The position numbers and the translations under genes are program-made. Under the pieces are notes generated by a model. That model had not been told where the DNA came from and made no database searches. It saw only the letters and a list, made by a program, of their open reading frames with translations. This document shows, in pieces, positions 7-60,413 of a stretch of DNA of 64,000 nucleotides; the stretch's first letter is position 1; each line of letters begins with the position of its first letter. Origin of the DNA: Escherichia coli (GTDB lineage Bacteria > Pseudomonadota > Gammaproteobacteria > Enterobacterales > Enterobacteriaceae). The stretch lies in assembly GCF_003334385.1 (NCBI RefSeq), contig NZ_QOWN01000005.1; one strand, 5' to 3'.

Positions 7-1899
7 TTACATCACCAGACGGCGAATGTCAGACAGCGTGTTGTTAATGATGGTAATGAAACGGGCACCATCAGCACCGTCGATCACGCGGTGGTCGAAG
101 GAGAGAGAAATCGGCAGCATCAGACGCGGCACGAACTCTTTACCATTCCACACCGGCTCCATCGCGGACTTGGAAACGCCGAGGATAGCCACTTCCGGCG
201 CGTTCACAATCGGCGCGAAGTGGGTAGTACCCAGGCCGCCGATGCTGGAGATGGTGAAGCAACCGCCCTGCATTTCGCCCGCAGTCAGCTTACCGTCACG
301 CGCTTTCTTAGAAATAGTCATCAGCTCGCGAGACAGCTCGATGATGCCTTTCTTGTTGACGTCTTTGAATACCGGAACAACCAGACCGTTCGGGGTATCC
401 ACCGCCACACCGATGTTGATGTATTTCTTCAGGGTCAGACGCTGACCGTCTTCCGACAGCGAACTATTGAAGCGAGGCATCTGCTCAAGAGCTGCAGCAA
501 CGGCTTTCATGATGAAGACAACCGGGGTGATCTTCACATCCAGCTTACGTTTCGCCGCTTCTTCGTTCTGCTGTTTACGGAACGCTTCCAACTCGGTGAT
601 ATCGGTTTTGTCGAAGTGAGTAACATGCGGGATCATTACCCAGTTACGGCTCAGGTTCGCACCAGAGATTTTCTGGATGCGGCCCAGTTCCACTTCTTCG
701 ATTTCACCAAACTTGCTGAAGTCCACCTTCGGCCACGGCAGCATGCCAGGGATACCACCGCCAGTCGCTGCCGGAGCTGCTTCTGCACGTTTGATAGCTT
801 CTTTCACGTAAGCCTGAACGTCTTCGCGCAGGATACGACCTTTACGGCCAGTGCCCTTCACTTTCGCAAGGTTAACACCAAACTCGCGTGCCAGACGGCG
901 GATCAGCGGAGTCGCGTGAACATAAGCGTCGTTTTCAGCAAATTCAGATTTGCCTTCCGCTTTCGCAGCTGGTGCTGCTGCCGGGGCTTCAGCTTTTGCT
1001 GCCGGTGCCGGCGCTGCCGCTTCCTGTTTCGCAGGAGCTGCCGCAGGCGCTGCGCCTTCAACTTCGAAGATCATAATCAGCGAGCCAGTTTTCACTTTAT
1101 CGCCAACGTTGACTTTCAGTTCCTTCACGACGCCTGCAAACGGCGCCGGAACTTCCATAGAAGCTTTGTCGCCTTCTACGGTGATCAGTGACTGTTCAGC
1201 GGCAACTTTGTCGCCCACTTTCACCATCACTTCAGTCACTTCAACTTCGTCACCGCCGATATCCGGAACGTTAACTTCTTTCACGCCAGCCGCTGGTGCA
1301 GGGGCCGCTGCCGGAGCTGCTTCCTGTTTAGCGGCCGGAGCTGCCGCGCCTGCTTCACCCGCGACTTCGAAGACCATAATCAGCGAGCCGGTAGACACTT
1401 TGTCACCCACGTTCACTTTGATCTCTTTCACGGTGCCAGCAAACGGAGCCGGAACTTCCATAGAAGCCTTGTCGCCTTCTACGGTGATCAGCGACTGTTC
1501 AGCTTCAACTTTATCGCCAACTTTCACCAGGATTTCGGTCACTTCAACTTCGTCGCTGCCGATATCCGGAACGTTAACGTCTTTTGCCGCCGCAGCCGCT
1601 GGTGCTGCTGCCGGAGCTGCTTCTTTCTTCTCTTCTGCCTGAGCAGGTGCAGCGTCTGCTGCACCGTCGGCGGAATCGAAAATCATAATCAGTGCGCCGG
1701 TCTGGGTTTTATCGCCAACAGAGACTTTGATCTCTTTAACGATACCCGCCTGCGGAGACGGAACTTCCATAGAGGCTTTGTCGCCTTCTACGGTGATCAG
1801 CGACTGTTCGGCTTCAACTTTGTCGCCCACTTTGACCAGGATCTCGGTGATTTCAACTTCATCAGCCCCGATGTCCGGTACTTTGATTTCGATAGCCAT
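7..1899 (-). CDS. aceF: Dihydrolipoamide acetyltransferase (E2) of pyruvate dehydrogenase; three tandem lipoyl domains separated by Ala/Pro-rich linkers
   Basis: 630-aa ORF with three repeats of the lipoyl motif ...[13 protein letters not shown]... and a C-terminal catalytic domain (DHRVIDGA); length matches E. coli AceF as I recall it. Confidence 0.97.
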
Positions 1900-1913
1900 T
1901 ATTCTTTTACCTC

Positions 1914-4577
1914 TTACGCCAGACGCGGGTTAACTTTATCTGCATCGATGTTGAATTTGGCGATTGCGTCAGCAACCACTTTCTTATCGATTTCGCCACG
2001 TTTAGCCAGTTCGCCCAGCGCCGCAACCACGACATAAGAAGCATCAACTTCGAAGTGGTGACGCAGGTTCTCACGGCTGTCGGAACGACCGAAGCCATCA
2101 GTACCCAGTACGCGGTAGTCGTCAGCCGGTACGTAAGTACGGACCTGCTCAGCGAACAGTTTCATATAGTCGGTAGATGCCACTGCCGGAGCGTCGTTCA
2201 TCACCTGAGCGATATACGGAACGCGCGGAGTTTCCAGCGGGTGCAGCATGTTCCAGCGTTCACAATCCTGACCATCACGCGCCAGCTCGGTGAAGGAGGT
2301 CACGCTATAAACGTCAGAACCTACGCCGTAATCTTTCGCCAGGATCTCAGCTGCTTCACGGACGTGACGCAGGATAGAACCGGAGCCGAGCAGCTGAACT
2401 TTACCTTTGCTACCTTCAATAGTTTCGAGTTTGTAGATACCTTTACGGATACCTTCCTCAGCACCTTCCGGCATTGCCGGCATGTGGTAGTTTTCGTTCA
2501 GCGTAGTGATGTAGTAGTAAACGTTCTCTTGTTTTTCACCGTACATACGCTCCAGACCGTCATGCATGATGACAGCAACTTCGTAAGCGTAAGCCGGGTC
2601 GTAAGAGATACAGTTCGGGATAGTCAGCGACTGAATGTGGCTGTGACCATCTTCGTGCTGCAGACCTTCGCCGTTCAGGGTGGTACGACCGGAAGTACCG
2701 CCGATCAGGAAGCCACGCGCTTGCTGGTCGCCAGCCGCCCAGCACAGATCGCCAATACGCTGGAAGCCGAACATCGAGTAATAGATGTAGAACGGGATCA
2801 TCGGCAGATTGTTGGTGCTGTAAGAGGTCGCCGCTGCCAGCCAGGAACAACCTGCGCCCAGCTCGTTGATCCCTTCCTGCAGAATCTGACCTTTCTCGTC
2901 TTCTTTATAGTAAGCAACCTGCTCGCGGTCCTGCGGGGTGTACTGCTGACCGTTCGGGCTGTAAATACCAATCTGACGGAACAGACCTTCCATACCGAAA
3001 GTACGCGCTTCGTCGGCGATGATCGGTACCAGACGATCTTTGATCGACTTGTTCTTCAGCATCACGTTCAGAGCACGAACGAAAGCGATAGTGGTAGAGA
3101 TCTCTTTGCTCTGCTCTTCCAACAGCGCGCCGAAGTCTTGCAGGCTCGGCAGCTCAAGCTTCTCGGTGAAGTTCGGCTGACGGCTTGGCAGATAACCGTG
3201 CAGTTTCTGACGCTGAGCGTGCAGATAGGTATGCTCTTCAGAACCTTCCGGGAAGGTGATGTACGGCAGTTTTTCGATATCTGCATCAGACACCGGCACA
3301 TTGAAACGGTCGCGGATATGACGCACACCGTCCATGTTCATTTTCTTAACCTGGTGCGCGATGTTTTTACCTTCAGCCGCGTCGCCCATGCCGTAACCTT
3401 TAATGGTATGAGCAAGGATTACTGTCGCTTTGCCTTTGGTTTCCTGCGCTTTCTTGAATGCAGCGTAGATTTTCTTCGGATCGTGACCACCACGGTTCAG
3501 TGCCCAGATCTGCTCGTCAGTCCAGTCTGCAACCAGTGCTGCGGTTTCAGGATATTTACCGAAGAAGTGTTCACGAACGTACGCACCATCTTTCGATTTG
3601 AAGGTCTGGTAGTCGCCGTCAACGGTTTCGTTCATCAGCTGGATCAGTTTACCGCTGGTATCCTTACGCAGCAGTTCATCCCAACGGCTACCCCACATCA
3701 CTTTGATCACGTTCCAGCCAGCACCTTCGAAGATGCCTTCCAGTTCGTTGATGATCTTGCCGTTACCGGTGACCGGGCCGTCAAGACGCTGCAGGTTACA
3801 GTTGATAACGAAGACCAGGTTATCCAGTTTTTCACGGGTAGCGATGGTGATCGCACCTTTGGATTCCGGTTCGTCCATTTCACCGTCACCGAGGAACGCG
3901 TAAACGGTTTGTTTAGAGGTATCTTTCAGGCCACGGTGTTCCAGATATTTCAGGAATTTAGCCTGGTAAATAGCACCAATCGGACCCAGACCCATAGATA
4001 CGGTCGGGAACTGCCAGAATTCCGGCATCAGTTTCGGGTGCGGATAGGAAGAGAGGCCATTGCCGTGAACTTCCTGACGGAAGTTATCCAGCTGCTCCTG
4101 AGTCAGACGACCTTCCAGGAAAGCACGAGCGTACACGCCCGGGGAGATGTGGCCCTGGAAGTAAACCAGGTCGCCGCCATCCTGCTCGTTGCGTGCACGG
4201 AAGAAGTGGTTAAAGCACACATCATAAATGGTTGCGGAAGACTGGAAGGACGCCATATGGCCGCCCAGTTCGAGGTCTTTTTTCGACGCACGCAGCACCG
4301 TCATGATGGCGTTCCAGCGGATAGCTGAACGAATACGGCGTTCCAGTTCCAGATTACCCGGATACTCCGGTTGTTCTTCAACGGGGATGGTGTTGATGTA
4401 GTTGCTGATACCTGTGCCTGCGGCTACGTTTACACCGCCTTTGCGGGCTTCAGCAAGCAGTTGGTCGATCAGATACTGAGCACGCTCAACACCTTCTTCA
4501 CGGATGACCGATTCGATCGCCTGGAGCCAGTCGCGAGTTTCGATCGGATCCACGTCATTTGGGAAACGTTCTGACAT
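1914..4577 (-). CDS. aceE: Pyruvate dehydrogenase E1 component
   Basis: 887-aa ORF beginning [24 protein letters not shown]; sits immediately upstream of aceF on the same strand. Confidence 0.97.
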
Positions 4578-8888: not shown

Positions 8889-9842
<954 letters not shown>

Positions 9843-10044: not shown

Positions 10045-10485
10045 ATGGACAAGCAACGCGGTTTTACACTTATCGAACTGATGGTGGTTATTGGCATCAT
10101 TGCCATTTTAAGCGCCATTGGTATTCCCGCTTATCAAAACTACCTGCGCAAAGCCGCACTCACCGACATGCTACAAACCTTTGTGCCTTACCGTACCGCC
10201 GTAGAGTTGTGCGCGCTGGAACATGGTGGATTAGATACCTGCGACGGTGGCAGCAATGGCATTCCCTCGCCTACCACCACCCGCTATGTTTCAGCCATGA
10301 GTGTGGCAAAGGGCGTGGTGTCGCTGACCGGGCAAGAAAGTCTCAATGGGCTAAGCGTCGTCATGACACCGGGTTGGGATAACGCAAACGGCGTCACCGG
10401 CTGGACGCGCAACTGCAATATTCAAAGTGACAGCGCATTGCAGCAAGCCTGCGAAGATGTCTTCCGCTTTGATGACGCCAACTAA
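10045..10485 (+). CDS. ppdD: Type IV prepilin-like major pilin
   Basis: 146-aa ORF with the class III signal MDKQRGFTLIELMVVIGIIAIL (G/FTLIE cleavage motif). Confidence 0.93.
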   Translation: MDKQRGFTLIELMVVIGIIAILSAIGIPAYQNYLRKAALTDMLQTFVPYRTAVELCALEHGGLDTCDGGSNGIPSPTTTRYVSAMSVAKGVVSLTGQESLNGLSVVMTPGWDNANGVTGWTRNCNIQSDSALQQACEDVFRFDDAN

Positions 10486-10494
10486 GGAGCGGCA

Positions 10495-12285
10495 ATGAAT
10501 ATTCCACAGCTCACTGCCCTGTGTCTGCGTTATCATGGAGTCTTGCTGGATGCCAGCGAAGAGGTGGTTCATGTTGCGGTAGTCGATGCACCTTCGCATG
10601 AGCTACTGGACGCATTGCATTTCGCTACCACCAAACGTATTGAGATCACCTGCTGGACGCGCCAACAAATGGAAGGTCACGCCAGTCGCACACAACAGAC
10701 ATTGCCCGTAGCTGTTCAGGAGAAGCATCAGCCCAAAGCAGAGTTGCTAACTCGAACGTTACAATCTGCGCTGGAACAACGCGCGTCTGATATTCATATC
10801 GAACCAGCGGACAATGCCTACCGCATCCGCTTGCGTATCGACGGCGTATTGCATCCTTTACCGGATGTTTCACCGGATGCCGGAGTCGCATTAACCGCCA
10901 GATTAAAAGTGCTGGGAAACCTGGATATTGCGGAACATCGCCTGCCGCAGGACGGGCAATTCACTGTCGAACTGGCAGGAAACGCCGTCTCATTTCGTAT
11001 TGCGACCTTACCATGTCGGGGTGGTGAAAAGGTGGTATTAAGGTTGTTACAGCAGGTGGGTCAGGCACTGGATGTCAACACGCTTGGAATGCAGCCGTTA
11101 CAACTGGCGGACTTTGCTCATGCCTTGCAACAACCACAGGGACTGGTGCTGGTAACTGGCCCTACCGGCAGCGGCAAAACGGTCACGCTTTATAGTGCCC
11201 TGCAAAAGCTGAATACCGCTGACATTAATATTTGTAGCGTCGAAGATCCAGTTGAGATCCCCATAGCCGGACTAAACCAGACGCAAATCCATCCGCGTGC
11301 CGGACTCACCTTTCAGGGCGTTTTGCGTGCGTTATTGCGCCAGGATCCTGACGTCATCATGATCGGAGAGATCCGCGATGGCGAAACAGCAGAGATCGCT
11401 ATTAAAGCGGCGCAAACTGGTCACCTGGTGTTGTCTACCCTACACACTAATTCCACCTGCGAAACGCTGGTACGTTTACAGCAAATGGGGGTCGCCCGCT
11501 GGATGCTATCATCGGCGCTTACGCTGGTAATAGCCCAGCGTCAGTTGACCGACAAAGTGAAATCAGCGTTACGTTATCCCATCATCATTTTAGCGATGGC
11601 AATCATGGTGGTTGTGGCAATGCTGCATTTTGTTCTGCCGGAGTTTGCCGCTATCTATAAGACCTTCAACACCCCACTACCGGCACTAACGCAGGGGATC
11701 ATGACGCTGGCAGACTTTAGTGGCGAATGGAGCTGGCTGCTGGTGTTGTTCGGCTTTCTGCTGGCGATAGCCAATAAGTTGCTGATGCGCCGACCGACCT
11801 GGCTTATAGTGCGGCAGAAATTGCTGTTACGCATCCCGATTATGGGTTCACTGATGCGGGGACAAAAACTCACGCAGATCTTTACGATTCTGGCGCTGAC
11901 ACAAAGTGCAGGCATTACTTTTTTACAGGGCGTAGAGAGCGTCAGAGAAACAATGCGCTGCCCGTACTGGGTGCAACTTCTGACACAAATCCAGCACGAT
12001 ATCAGTAACGGTCAACCCATCTGGCTGGCGCTAAAAAATACCGGTGAGTTTAGCCCGCTCTGTTTGCAATTAGTGAGAACAGGAGAGGCATCCGGCTCTC
12101 TGGATCTCATGTTAGACAACCTCGCCCATCATCATCGGGAAAACACAATGGCGCTGGCGGATAACCTCGCAGCCTTACTGGAACCGGCGTTGCTGATCAT
12201 AACGGGAGGAATTATTGGTACGCTGGTGGTGGCAATGTATCTGCCAATTTTCCATTTAGGCGATGCGATGAGTGGGATGGGATAA
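10495..12285 (+). CDS. hofB/hofC: Chimeric ORF: GspE/PilB-type secretion ATPase (HofB-like residues ~1-349) fused in frame to the C-terminal ~247 residues of a GspF/PilC-type platform protein (HofC-like); probably a deletion remnant, possibly non-functional
   Basis: Single 596-aa ORF. Walker A LVLVTGPTGSGKT at aa 218-230, Asp box DPDVIMIGEIRD, His box GHLVLSTLHTNS, then ...ALTLVIAQR | QLTDKVKSALRYPIIILAMAIMVVVAML... (junction near nt 11536-11545) continuing as a polytopic membrane protein that ends LLEPALLIITGGIIGTLVVAMYLPIF. No GspE C-terminal tetracysteine domain and no GspF N-terminal cytoplasmic domain. Confidence 0.8.
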   Translation: MNIPQLTALCLRYHGVLLDASEEVVHVAVVDAPSHELLDALHFATTKRIEITCWTRQQMEGHASRTQQTLPVAVQEKHQPKAELLTRTLQSALEQRASDIHIEPADNAYRIRLRIDGVLHPLPDVSPDAGVALTARLKVLGNLDIAEHRLPQDGQFTVELAGNAVSFRIATLPCRGGEKVVLRLLQQVGQALDVNTLGMQPLQLADFAHALQQPQGLVLVTGPTGSGKTVTLYSALQKLNTADINICSVEDPVEIPIAGLNQTQIHPRAGLTFQGVLRALLRQDPDVIMIGEIRDGETAEIAIKAAQTGHLVLSTLHTNSTCETLVRLQQMGVARWMLSSALTLVIAQRQLTDKVKSALRYPIIILAMAIMVVVAMLHFVLPEFAAIYKTFNTPLPALTQGIMTLADFSGEWSWLLVLFGFLLAIANKLLMRRPTWLIVRQKLLLRIPIMGSLMRGQKLTQIFTILALTQSAGITFLQGVESVRETMRCPYWVQLLTQIQHDISNGQPIWLALKNTGEFSPLCLQLVRTGEASGSLDLMLDNLAHHHRENTMALADNLAALLEPALLIITGGIIGTLVVAMYLPIFHLGDAMSGMG

Positions 12286-12311
12286 CGCTGGCGTGTTGCT
12301 CCACGCCAGCG
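12286..12311. terminator. Perfect 10-bp stem-loop (CGCTGGCGTG ttgctc CACGCCAGCG) in the 34-bp spacer between the convergent hofBC ORF and guaC
   Basis: Inverted repeat seen directly; starts right after the fusion ORF stop codon. Confidence 0.4.
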
Positions 12312-12319
12312 TTGGGAGA

Positions 12320-13363
12320 TTACAGGTTGTTGAAGATGCGGTTTTCTTGTTCCTGCACACGAATAAACGTGGTGCGCTTGGTCAGCTCTTTCAGGCGTGA
12401 AGCCCCAACGTATGTACAAGCTGAACGCAGGCCGCCCAAAATATCTCGCGCGGTATTTTCAACCGGGCCTCGCAGCGGCAGCTTAACGGTTTTACCTTCT
12501 GCTGCGCGATATTCCGCAACGCCGCCAACGTGACGTTTCATCGCAGACTCGGAGCTCATGCCGTAGAACAGCATAAATTTCTCGCCGTTCTCCTCAACGA
12601 TGCGACCGCCGCTCTCTTCGTGGCCCGCCAGCATGCCGCCAAGCATGACGAAATCGGCACCGCCGCCAAAGGCTTTCGCCACATCGCCCGGCGTGGTGCA
12701 GCCACCATCGCTGACGATCATTCCGCCCAGACCGTGCGCAGCATCGGCACATTCGATTACCGCAGAAAGTTGCGGATAACCGACGCCTGTTTTGACGCGA
12801 GTTGTACAAACAGAACCTGGGCCAATGCCAACTTTAACGATATCGGCACCTGAGAGGATAAGCTCCTCACACATTTCACCAGTCACTACGTTACCAGCAC
12901 AAATGGTTTTGGTCGGCCACGCTTCACGCGCTTTCGCAACGAACTGCACGAAGTGTTCGGAATAACCATTCGCCACGTCAATACAAACGAAGTTTAATGC
13001 CGGGTTCAGGTCGAGAATCTGTTTAGTTTTTTCGAAATCCGCATCAGACGTACCGGTAGAAACCATCACATGTTTCAGCACATCAGCGGAAGAATTGTTG
13101 ATAAACGCTTGCCACTCTTCGACAGAATAGTGTTTATGCACAGCAGTCAAAATATCAAAAGAAGCCAGCGCAGAGGCCATAGAAAATGTGCCTACGGTGT
13201 CCATATTTGCGGCGATAATCGGCACGCCGGACCAGCTCTGACCTGAATGTTTGAAGGTGAATTGACGTTCCAGTTCAACATCGGAACGGCTTTTAAGAGT
13301 GGAGCGTTTAGGGCGGATGAGAACGTCTTTAAAACCTAACTTCAGATCTTCTTCAATACGCAT
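12320..13363 (-). CDS. guaC: GMP reductase
   Basis: 347-aa ORF beginning [33 protein letters not shown]; IMPDH/GMPR TIM-barrel motifs. Confidence 0.96.
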
Positions 13364-15164: not shown

Positions 15165-15373
<209 letters not shown>

Positions 15374-15763: not shown

Positions 15764-15822
15764 TGTCTTAAACCTATAAAAAAGGCGCAGAATCCTGCGC
15801 CTTTTACTTCAACAGTTAGCTT

Positions 15823-59978: not shown

Positions 59979-60413
59979 GCATCCGGTATGTAACACCTGA
60001 TGCGACGCTGACGCGTCTTATCTGGCCTACACGCTGCGATTTTGTAGGCCGGATAAGCAAAGCGCATCCGGCATTCAACGCCTGATGCGACGCTGGCGCG
60101 TCTTATCAGGCCTACGCGCTGCGATTTTGTAGGCCGGATAAGCAAAGCGCATCCGGCATTCAACGCCTGATGCGACGCTGGCGCGTCTTATCAGGCCTAC
60201 GCGCTGCGATTTTGTAGGCCGGATAAGCAAAGCGCATCCGGCATTCAACGCCTGATGCGACGCTGGCGCGTCTTATCAGGCCTACGCGCTGCGATTTTGT
60301 AGGCCGGATAAGCAAAGCGCATCCGGCATTCAACGCCTGATGCGACGCTGGCGCGTCTTATCAGGCCTACACGCTGCGATTTTGTAGGCCGGATAAGCAA
60401 AGCGCATCCGGCA
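59979..60413. repeat. Tandem BIME array: five complete 85-bp units (starting at 59979, 60064, 60149, 60234, 60319) plus a partial sixth, each unit holding an inverted REP pair
   Basis: Unit GCATCCGGCATTCAACGCCTGATGCGACGCTGGCGCGTCTTATCAGGCCTACGCGCTGCGATTTTGTAGGCCGGATAAGCAAAGC repeats with an exact 85-bp period; fills the araA-araD spacer. Confidence 0.9.

Follow-up and report, generated by a model that had tools for sequence, protein, structure and literature searches.

Why does one open reading frame (ORF) follow the major type IV pilin gene ppdD in this Escherichia coli genome, in the place of the two genes hofB and hofC, and what would become of pilus assembly with such a product? We addressed this question in a window of 64,000 nucleotides, meaning the whole stretch of DNA analyzed from contig NZ_QOWN01000005.1 (assembly GCF_003334385.1), the rest of which, from aceF through polB, looks like normal sequence of the K-12-like, phylogroup-A kind. 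Among the genes cloned for the PpdD pilus assembly system of E. coli, hofB codes for the ATPase and hofC for the platform protein (bioRxiv 10.1101/856302). In the window, ppdD (positions 10045 to 10485, plus strand) is intact and the same as in the intact reference locus used below, and it is followed after 9 bp by a single ORF of 596 amino acids (10495 to 12285, plus strand, stop codon included). The ORF listing agrees on this point with a preliminary description made from the sequence letters, which had read one 596-amino-acid ORF directly after ppdD instead of two genes. The downstream gene guaC (12320 to 13363, minus strand) is also intact and lies 34 bp beyond the ORF; both gaps, which had been described as unchanged, are equal in the window and in the reference. 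Given that guaC is convergent, the loss of DNA described here has no polar effect. It is very probable that the ORF is a rare and recent null allele of the ppdD-hofB-hofC operon, generated by a spontaneous, repeat-mediated deletion of 787 bp that recurred independently in a second lineage.

As an intact reference, we used the best-matching intact locus, that of strain 510016, and compared it with the window base by base. The reference carries hofB (annotated as gspE) with 461 amino acids and hofC with 400 amino acids, the two genes overlapping by 11 bp. From these same gene lengths, given for K-12, the locus had been estimated to be about 787 bp shorter than normal, and the comparison with the reference shows that exactly 787 bp are missing. 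Identity to the reference extends over 1,498 bp in the left flank and 789 bp in the right flank, and these two stretches overlap by 11 bp. The sequence AGCCCAGCGTC occurs twice in the reference (2988-2998 and 3775-3785, a spacing of 787 bp) and once in the window (11532-11542), where the alignment places the breakpoints. With its flanks, the repeat is identical at 13 of 14 positions; hofBC contains just one other exact 11-mer that is repeated, and no repeat of greater length. The sole SNP between window and reference over the compared flanks is at window position 9116, in nadC. A search for inverted repeats that might stimulate slippage gave a single 10-nt pair, unrelated to the breakpoints, and thus none that brackets them or joins the repeat copies. 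The 787-bp loss bears the signature of slipped-strand, microhomology-mediated deletion between short direct repeats: the repeat stands at both ends of the missing segment in the parental arrangement, one copy is left, and the junction is free of filler and mobile-element DNA. This bears out the earlier proposal of a single internal deletion, possibly mediated by microhomology, as one in-frame loss at an 11-bp repeat with matching flanks. Mechanistically, the copy toward the 3' end of the ATPase core in hofB misaligned with the copy just upstream of the first transmembrane segment (TM1) of hofC, and the slipped-strand deletion left one of the two in place.

Deletion hot spots between short direct repeats were reportedly described for lacI of E. 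coli by Albertini and colleagues in 1982 (in Cell). Those deletions resemble the hofB-hofC deletion in that several hundred base pairs are lost at a short, near-perfect repeat, one copy is left, no foreign DNA is involved, and the events recur at the best repeat pair. The lacI cases were selected laboratory mutants, whereas the hofB-hofC deletion is an allele of a natural isolate in a chromosomal operon.

That two truncated genes were joined without a frameshift might be taken as a sign of selection for the product. The reading frame of hofC is one base off that of hofB, and 787 equals 1 modulo 3; moreover, each gene reads its copy of the repeat in the same codon phase, as Ala-Gln-Arg (HofB, …VI-AQR-LVRK…; HofC, …QK-AQR-QLTD…). 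The fusion is in frame because the length of the deletion cancels the +1 offset between the two genes and the repeat is in equal codon phase, and therefore every deletion between the two copies is bound to leave the frame open. That it is open is a matter of geometry and provides no evidence of selection.

A junction at a repeat also raises the question of whether the allele is real, and the preliminary description had named misassembly at this point as an outcome that would speak against it. The exact 596-amino-acid protein is present in four NCBI records (HAH1512240.1, HAH9032880.1, HAM4712444.1, and OWD71246.1) as well as in Logan assemblies. Identity to the window is 100% both for a contig of GCA_014465035.1, over 21.8 kb, and for a Logan contig from ERR1948963 (7 samples), over 13.5 kb. 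The carriers of the window's allele form one clone. In favor of a misassembly at the 11-bp repeat of genes that are intact in the organism, the carriers found are all drafts: with a 111-bp query spanning the junction, none of 5,426 complete E. coli genomes had the two halves contiguous. However, different pipelines arrived at the identical junction, which stands in the four protein records as well as in Logan assemblies made from several runs of reads, and the second lineage has it both in a deposited assembly and in an independent Logan assembly (DRR102973). A repeat of 11 bp is also shorter than the k-mer sizes usually used by assemblers, which likewise counts against misassembly. Because different pipelines agree, misassembly is very unlikely, and we regard it as a barely tenable account of the junction.

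To place this allele in the context of the species, we searched the region from 10045 to 12320 with megablast against the 5,426 complete E. coli genomes, 5,425 of which matched. In 5,423 of the 5,425 matching genomes, the region aligned as two pieces, spanning 3,063 bp among the matches listed, versus 2,276 bp here. HofB also has 461 amino acids in Salmonella, Citrobacter, and Enterobacter, the cluster of intact HofB proteins comprises 15,911 distinct member sequences, and between-lineage dN/dS values are 0.04 for hofB and 0.12 for hofC. Both genes are thus nearly universal in the species and kept by purifying selection, with the fusion allele as a rare exception; scanned for an exact 40-mer across the junction, JGI metagenome contigs likewise gave 0 matches. 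General decay of the operon was considered as well and is ruled out by the retention of the locus in 5,423 of 5,425 matching genomes together with the dN/dS values of 0.04 to 0.12. The reverse polarity, in which the 596-amino-acid gene would be the older state and the two-gene arrangement would have arisen by insertion, has the existence of the ORF in its favor and nothing further. It is refuted by the separate full-length genes in 5,423 complete E. coli genomes and in other Enterobacteriaceae, and by the fact that the "extra" 787 bp code for conserved family domains that align to solved structures; its probability is negligible. Among the best 8,000 candidates by shared words, a homology search for natural fusions of an ATPase and a platform protein in other taxa gave, as two-domain proteins, only deletion alleles of E. 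coli, a result that does not extend to distant taxa.

One of the proteins from the homology search, referred to here as P0002, is a second 596-amino-acid product with the same junction and four amino acid differences. It is encoded on two mutually identical contigs, one from GCA_005390245.1 and the other from the independent Logan assembly of DRR102973. These contigs align to the window without gaps across the junction and differ from it by 98 SNPs in 14.8 kb, 6 of which fall in the hofB part of the fusion and 9 in the hofC part. The 2,276-bp region of the GCA_005390245.1 contig matches the intact genomes M8, GE3, RM10466, and others with 100% identity, in two pieces that span 3,063 bp, while the same region of the window matches another intact set (510016, MS15047, and others). 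Since the intact genomes matched by each allele belong to that allele's own lineage, the same 787-bp deletion most likely arose twice, independently. The recurrence would be due to the AGCCCAGCGTC pair, which offers the best substrate for slippage within the operon; the pair is also present in other lineages.

Alternatively, the deletion could have arisen once and entered the second lineage on a short tract of homologous recombination. Compatible with such an imported patch, no SNP that distinguishes the lineages is found between window positions 11322 and 11832, a stretch of 510 bp that covers 210 bp upstream and 290 bp downstream of the junction. Yet the tract would have to be shorter than ∼0.5 kb and centered on the junction, at all 15 SNPs of the fused gene each lineage agrees with the intact allele of its own kind, and the repeat pair is both present in other lineages and the best substrate for slippage that the operon has. 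Several further microhomology deletions in the ppdD-hofB-hofC operon also speak against a single origin, which we consider unlikely compared with two independent deletions.

These further alleles, from public E. coli assemblies, are, like the 787-bp deletion, in-frame deletions bounded by microhomology that fuse adjacent genes of the operon, but they have other breakpoints and other microhomologies (5 to 11 bp), and some of them join the pilin to the ATPase. Two fuse hofB to hofC: P0004, with 553 bp deleted at TACCC, was found on 13 contigs, one of them a 4.9-Mb assembly, and P0003 lacks 469 bp at CAT(C/T)CA. The others fuse ppdD to hofB, with 252 bp deleted at the 11-bp sequence GCTGGACGCGC in P0024 and 105 bp deleted at GCC(T/A)GCGAAGA in P0010 and P0011. 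Detection as two-domain proteins reveals in-frame deletions only, and because in-frame events alone are visible in this way, the true number of deletions in the operon is likely higher than the number found.

We then asked what the fusion product keeps of its two parents. It consists of HofB residues 1 to 349 and HofC residues 151 to 400, the Ala-Gln-Arg from the repeat being common to both, and what is retained shows 100% sequence identity with the intact proteins from closely related strains. All parts of the ORF given here are on the plus strand. The hofB-derived part (10495 to 11531) corresponds to HofB residues 1 to 346, that is, an MshEN-like N-terminal domain and the ATPase core through the His box. 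It is followed by the junction (11532 to 11542), the sole remaining copy of the repeat, which codes for A-Q-R, and by the hofC-derived part (11543 to 12285), corresponding to HofC residues 154 to 400 with TM1, TM2, the second cytoplasmic T2SSF domain, and TM3. Domain searches for the two families, which had been suggested as a check, returned one partial match of the HofB type and one of the HofC type: the NCBIfam HofB-type GspE model NF007755 covers fusion residues 2 to 350 (profile positions 6 to 354 of 465), and the NCBIfam HofC model NF007861 covers residues 347 to 595 (152 to 401 of 401). With Pfam models, T2SSE (PF00437) matches residues 75 to 355 (E = 9e-118), and T2SSF (PF00482) gives one complete domain at 465 to 584, its other match consisting of the model tail only (positions 58 to 125).

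On the ATPase side, the Walker A motif GPTGSGKT (residues 222 to 229; 11158 to 11181) is kept, the His-box HTN is at residue 317, and the RecA-like core typical of GspE/PilB-type ATPases, with its Walker A, Asp box, Walker B, and His box, is retained to the last conserved strand (…LVIAQR). The reading of residues 1 to 349 as an intact ATPase N terminus and core therefore stands, as does the observation that the protein never reaches its C-terminal tetracysteine domain. Intact HofB has the motifs CPHC at 355 and CVHC at 385, whereas the fusion contains no CxxC motif and thus lacks the tetracysteine (CxxC...CxxC) arrangement that is typical of assembly rather than retraction ATPases. The lost residues, HofB 350 to 461, align to the C-terminal CxxC...CxxC region and the terminal helices of PilB/GspE structures (5zfr, 5tsg, 1p9r, and 4ksr).

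On the platform side, the switch to a GspF/PilC-like protein occurs at VIAQR|QLTDKV, as had been described, and the first cytoplasmic domain is gone: HofC residues 1 to 150 are absent, and HofC 61 to 162 align to the crystallized first cytoplasmic domains of PilC (2whn) and EpsF (2vma and 3c1q). Kyte-Doolittle hydropathy predicts three transmembrane segments, as in PilC and GspF, all of them after fusion residue ∼360: TM1 at residues ∼361 to 381 (11575 to 11637, with the hydropathy maximum of 2.99), TM2 at ∼412 to 426 (11728 to 11772), and TM3 at ∼564 to 586 (12184 to 12252). The three peaks expected of a GspF/PilC-type platform are thus present, but of its paired T2SSF domains, the first ahead of TM1 and the second between TM2 and TM3, only the second is complete. 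From this predicted topology, the ATPase remnant of ∼355 residues would remain in the cytoplasm, with a direct tether to TM1. Neither reference gene is full length here, and neither zinc-finger nor domain-1 sequence is recognizable in the ORF, which disposes of the remaining grounds on which the preliminary description could have failed. The ORF has the core features of both families yet lacks one defining feature of each, namely the tetracysteine domain and the paired T2SSF domains. We would class it as what is left of two family members after their fusion; it is a member of neither family and represents no new architecture.

How would such a protein behave? It would be membrane anchored, with a cytoplasmic, C-terminally truncated ATPase joined to TM1 of a platform protein that has no first cytoplasmic domain. 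In EpsE of Vibrio cholerae, variants in which the zinc-binding domain is deleted, or any one of its cysteines changed, no longer support secretion and are dominant negative, and removal of zinc abolishes ATPase activity (Rule et al. 2016, PMC5061722). EpsE without the zinc-binding CM domain is the nearest tested functional analogue of the fusion, being an assembly ATPase of the same family from which the tetracysteine domain is gone; in the fusion, by contrast, the whole C terminus after the core (112 residues) is missing, and a covalent bond links what remains to a membrane protein. For the platform, PilC's N-terminal domain binds PilB and has been modeled in the pore of the hexamer (2017, PMC5424180). 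The fusion would therefore combine an ATPase without a zinc-binding region that is essential in homologues with a platform that has no ATPase-engaging domain, and its 1:1 covalent linkage would be at odds with the geometry that has been proposed, in which a hexameric ATPase surrounds PilC as a monomer or dimer. Because an essential module of the ATPase and the ATPase-engaging domain of the platform are both gone and the 1:1 link misfits the hexamer geometry, the allele would be a null for assembly of the PpdD pilus and for pilus-dependent DNA uptake, and the product is almost certainly nonfunctional for type IV pilus assembly.

The preliminary description had left two outcomes side by side, inactivation or an unusual ATPase-platform chimera. 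The first is far better supported, given the essential modules that are missing; the second has fared much less well. A motor that is tethered to the membrane and still works or has gained a new function, or a regulator selected for a dominant-negative effect on the machinery of the pilus or of type II secretion, would be in keeping with the in-frame fusion, the intact ATPase core and Walker A motif, the coherent topology, the conservation of the frame in at least two lineages, and the dominant-negative behavior of EpsE without its zinc domain (PMC5061722). Against it, the codon phase of the repeat forces the in-frame outcome with no need for selection, the interaction module and the essential module are both missing, carriers are extremely scarce (none in 5,426 complete genomes and none among the JGI metagenome contigs), and the apparent preference for open frames reflects an ascertainment bias, in that in-frame deletions alone show up as two-domain proteins. 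We therefore give a functional chimera only a small probability and favor inactivation. Nevertheless, since the RecA-like core is kept and the predicted membrane topology is coherent, a stable product may have residual or dominant-negative activity.

Compared with the intact PpdD system (the haemorrhagic coli pilus), in which HofB is a PilB/GspE-type protein and HofC a PilC/GspF-type protein, the locus described here codes for one polypeptide instead of two. Both have the same pilin gene upstream, with one SNP, that in nadC, within ∼1.5 kb upstream of ppdD. The ppdD-hofB-hofC operon is silent in laboratory culture. In the preliminary description, the ppdD-hofBC genes had been given as reportedly required for using DNA as a nutrient. 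The eight genes reportedly assigned to this use of DNA by Palchevskiy and Finkel in 2006 are hofMNOPQ, yhgH, yhgI, and yhiR, and ppdD-hofBC is said not to be among them. Expression of ppdD is under Sxy/CRP-S regulation (PMC1635313), which is presumably intact in the window since ppdD and its upstream sequence are unchanged.

In sum, a known mechanism has here given rise to a loss-of-function allele of an ordinary kind, to which the recurrence and an annotation issue add modest interest. The NCBI label "type II secretion system protein GspE" is misleading for what is a fused remnant of two genes, and we suggest treating it as a pseudogene-like allele. Its recurrence at one repeat pair makes a tidy natural example of a hot spot for microhomology deletion and calls for no new mechanism. 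A more far-reaching idea, which we consider decidedly unlikely, is that the repeat pair serves as a mutational hot spot that, repeatedly and for good, switches off the PpdD pilus and DNA uptake, with the loss selected in some niches (e.g., as an escape from pilus-dependent phage or host recognition), or that the tethered ATPase remnant acts in a dominant-negative manner on related secretion ATPases. As for the biology of the organism, the carrier strains would be natural hofBC nulls with an intact pilin gene, and they could help to test which role the cryptic PpdD pilus and competence play in nature.

The 787-bp deletion that fuses hofB to hofC in the window was also found, with an identical junction, in a second E. 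coli lineage, represented by assembly GCA_005390245.1 (locus L004, 10001-11791) and by a Logan assembly of DRR102973 (locus L005, 9055-10845). The window differs from this lineage by 98 SNPs across 14.8 kb, and the flanks of the two loci are 100% identical to intact genomes belonging to another set than those matching the window. The deletion in the second lineage is probably an independent recurrence.

Besides the 787-bp allele, two further hofB-hofC fusions, both in-frame, were found in E. coli. One encodes 674 aa, lacks 553 bp at the microhomology TACCC (GCA_949281545.1, L007 5001-7025; also L008), and is present on 13 contigs. The other encodes 702 aa and lacks 469 bp at CAT(C/T)CA (GCA_965264585.1, L006 5001-7109).

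Public E. coli assemblies additionally contain proteins that join the pilin PpdD to HofB. Their junctions were inferred from the protein sequences together with reference DNA and mapped onto the intact locus of strain 510016 (L001 1501-3336), giving a 105-bp deletion at GCC(T/A)GCGAAGA for P0010 and P0011 (576 aa) and, for P0024 (527 aa), a loss of 252 bp at GCTGGACGCGC, a repeat of 11 bp. A separate protein, P0065 (391 aa, from a JGI contig of 4,834 bp), consists of ~85 N-terminal GuaC residues followed by HofC from residue ~96, with the join falling at a "WQA" common to both; given that guaC is convergent to hofC, this protein would require an inversion or would represent a chimeric metagenome assembly.

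Strain 510016, the closest intact reference, carries an IS200C insertion (~707 bp; L009 48557-49015) between secA and mutT that is absent from the window (site at ~15778-15782). Between yacG and mutT (window 15262-15296), the window's clone and the L004 lineage differ by ~116 bp, probably a polymorphism of an intergenic repeat element. Between araD and araA (window ~60158-60247), the alignment with strain 510016 breaks with overlapping reference coordinates, suggesting a copy-number difference of an intergenic repeat.

The density of SNPs separating the window from L004 varies in a strongly mosaic fashion (window 495-4577 and 12320-13363), with 10 to 16 SNPs per kb in aceE, aceF, and guaC versus 0 to 2 per kb in pdhR, aroP, ampE, ampD, coaE, and zapD, as is typical where lineages have recombined in the past.
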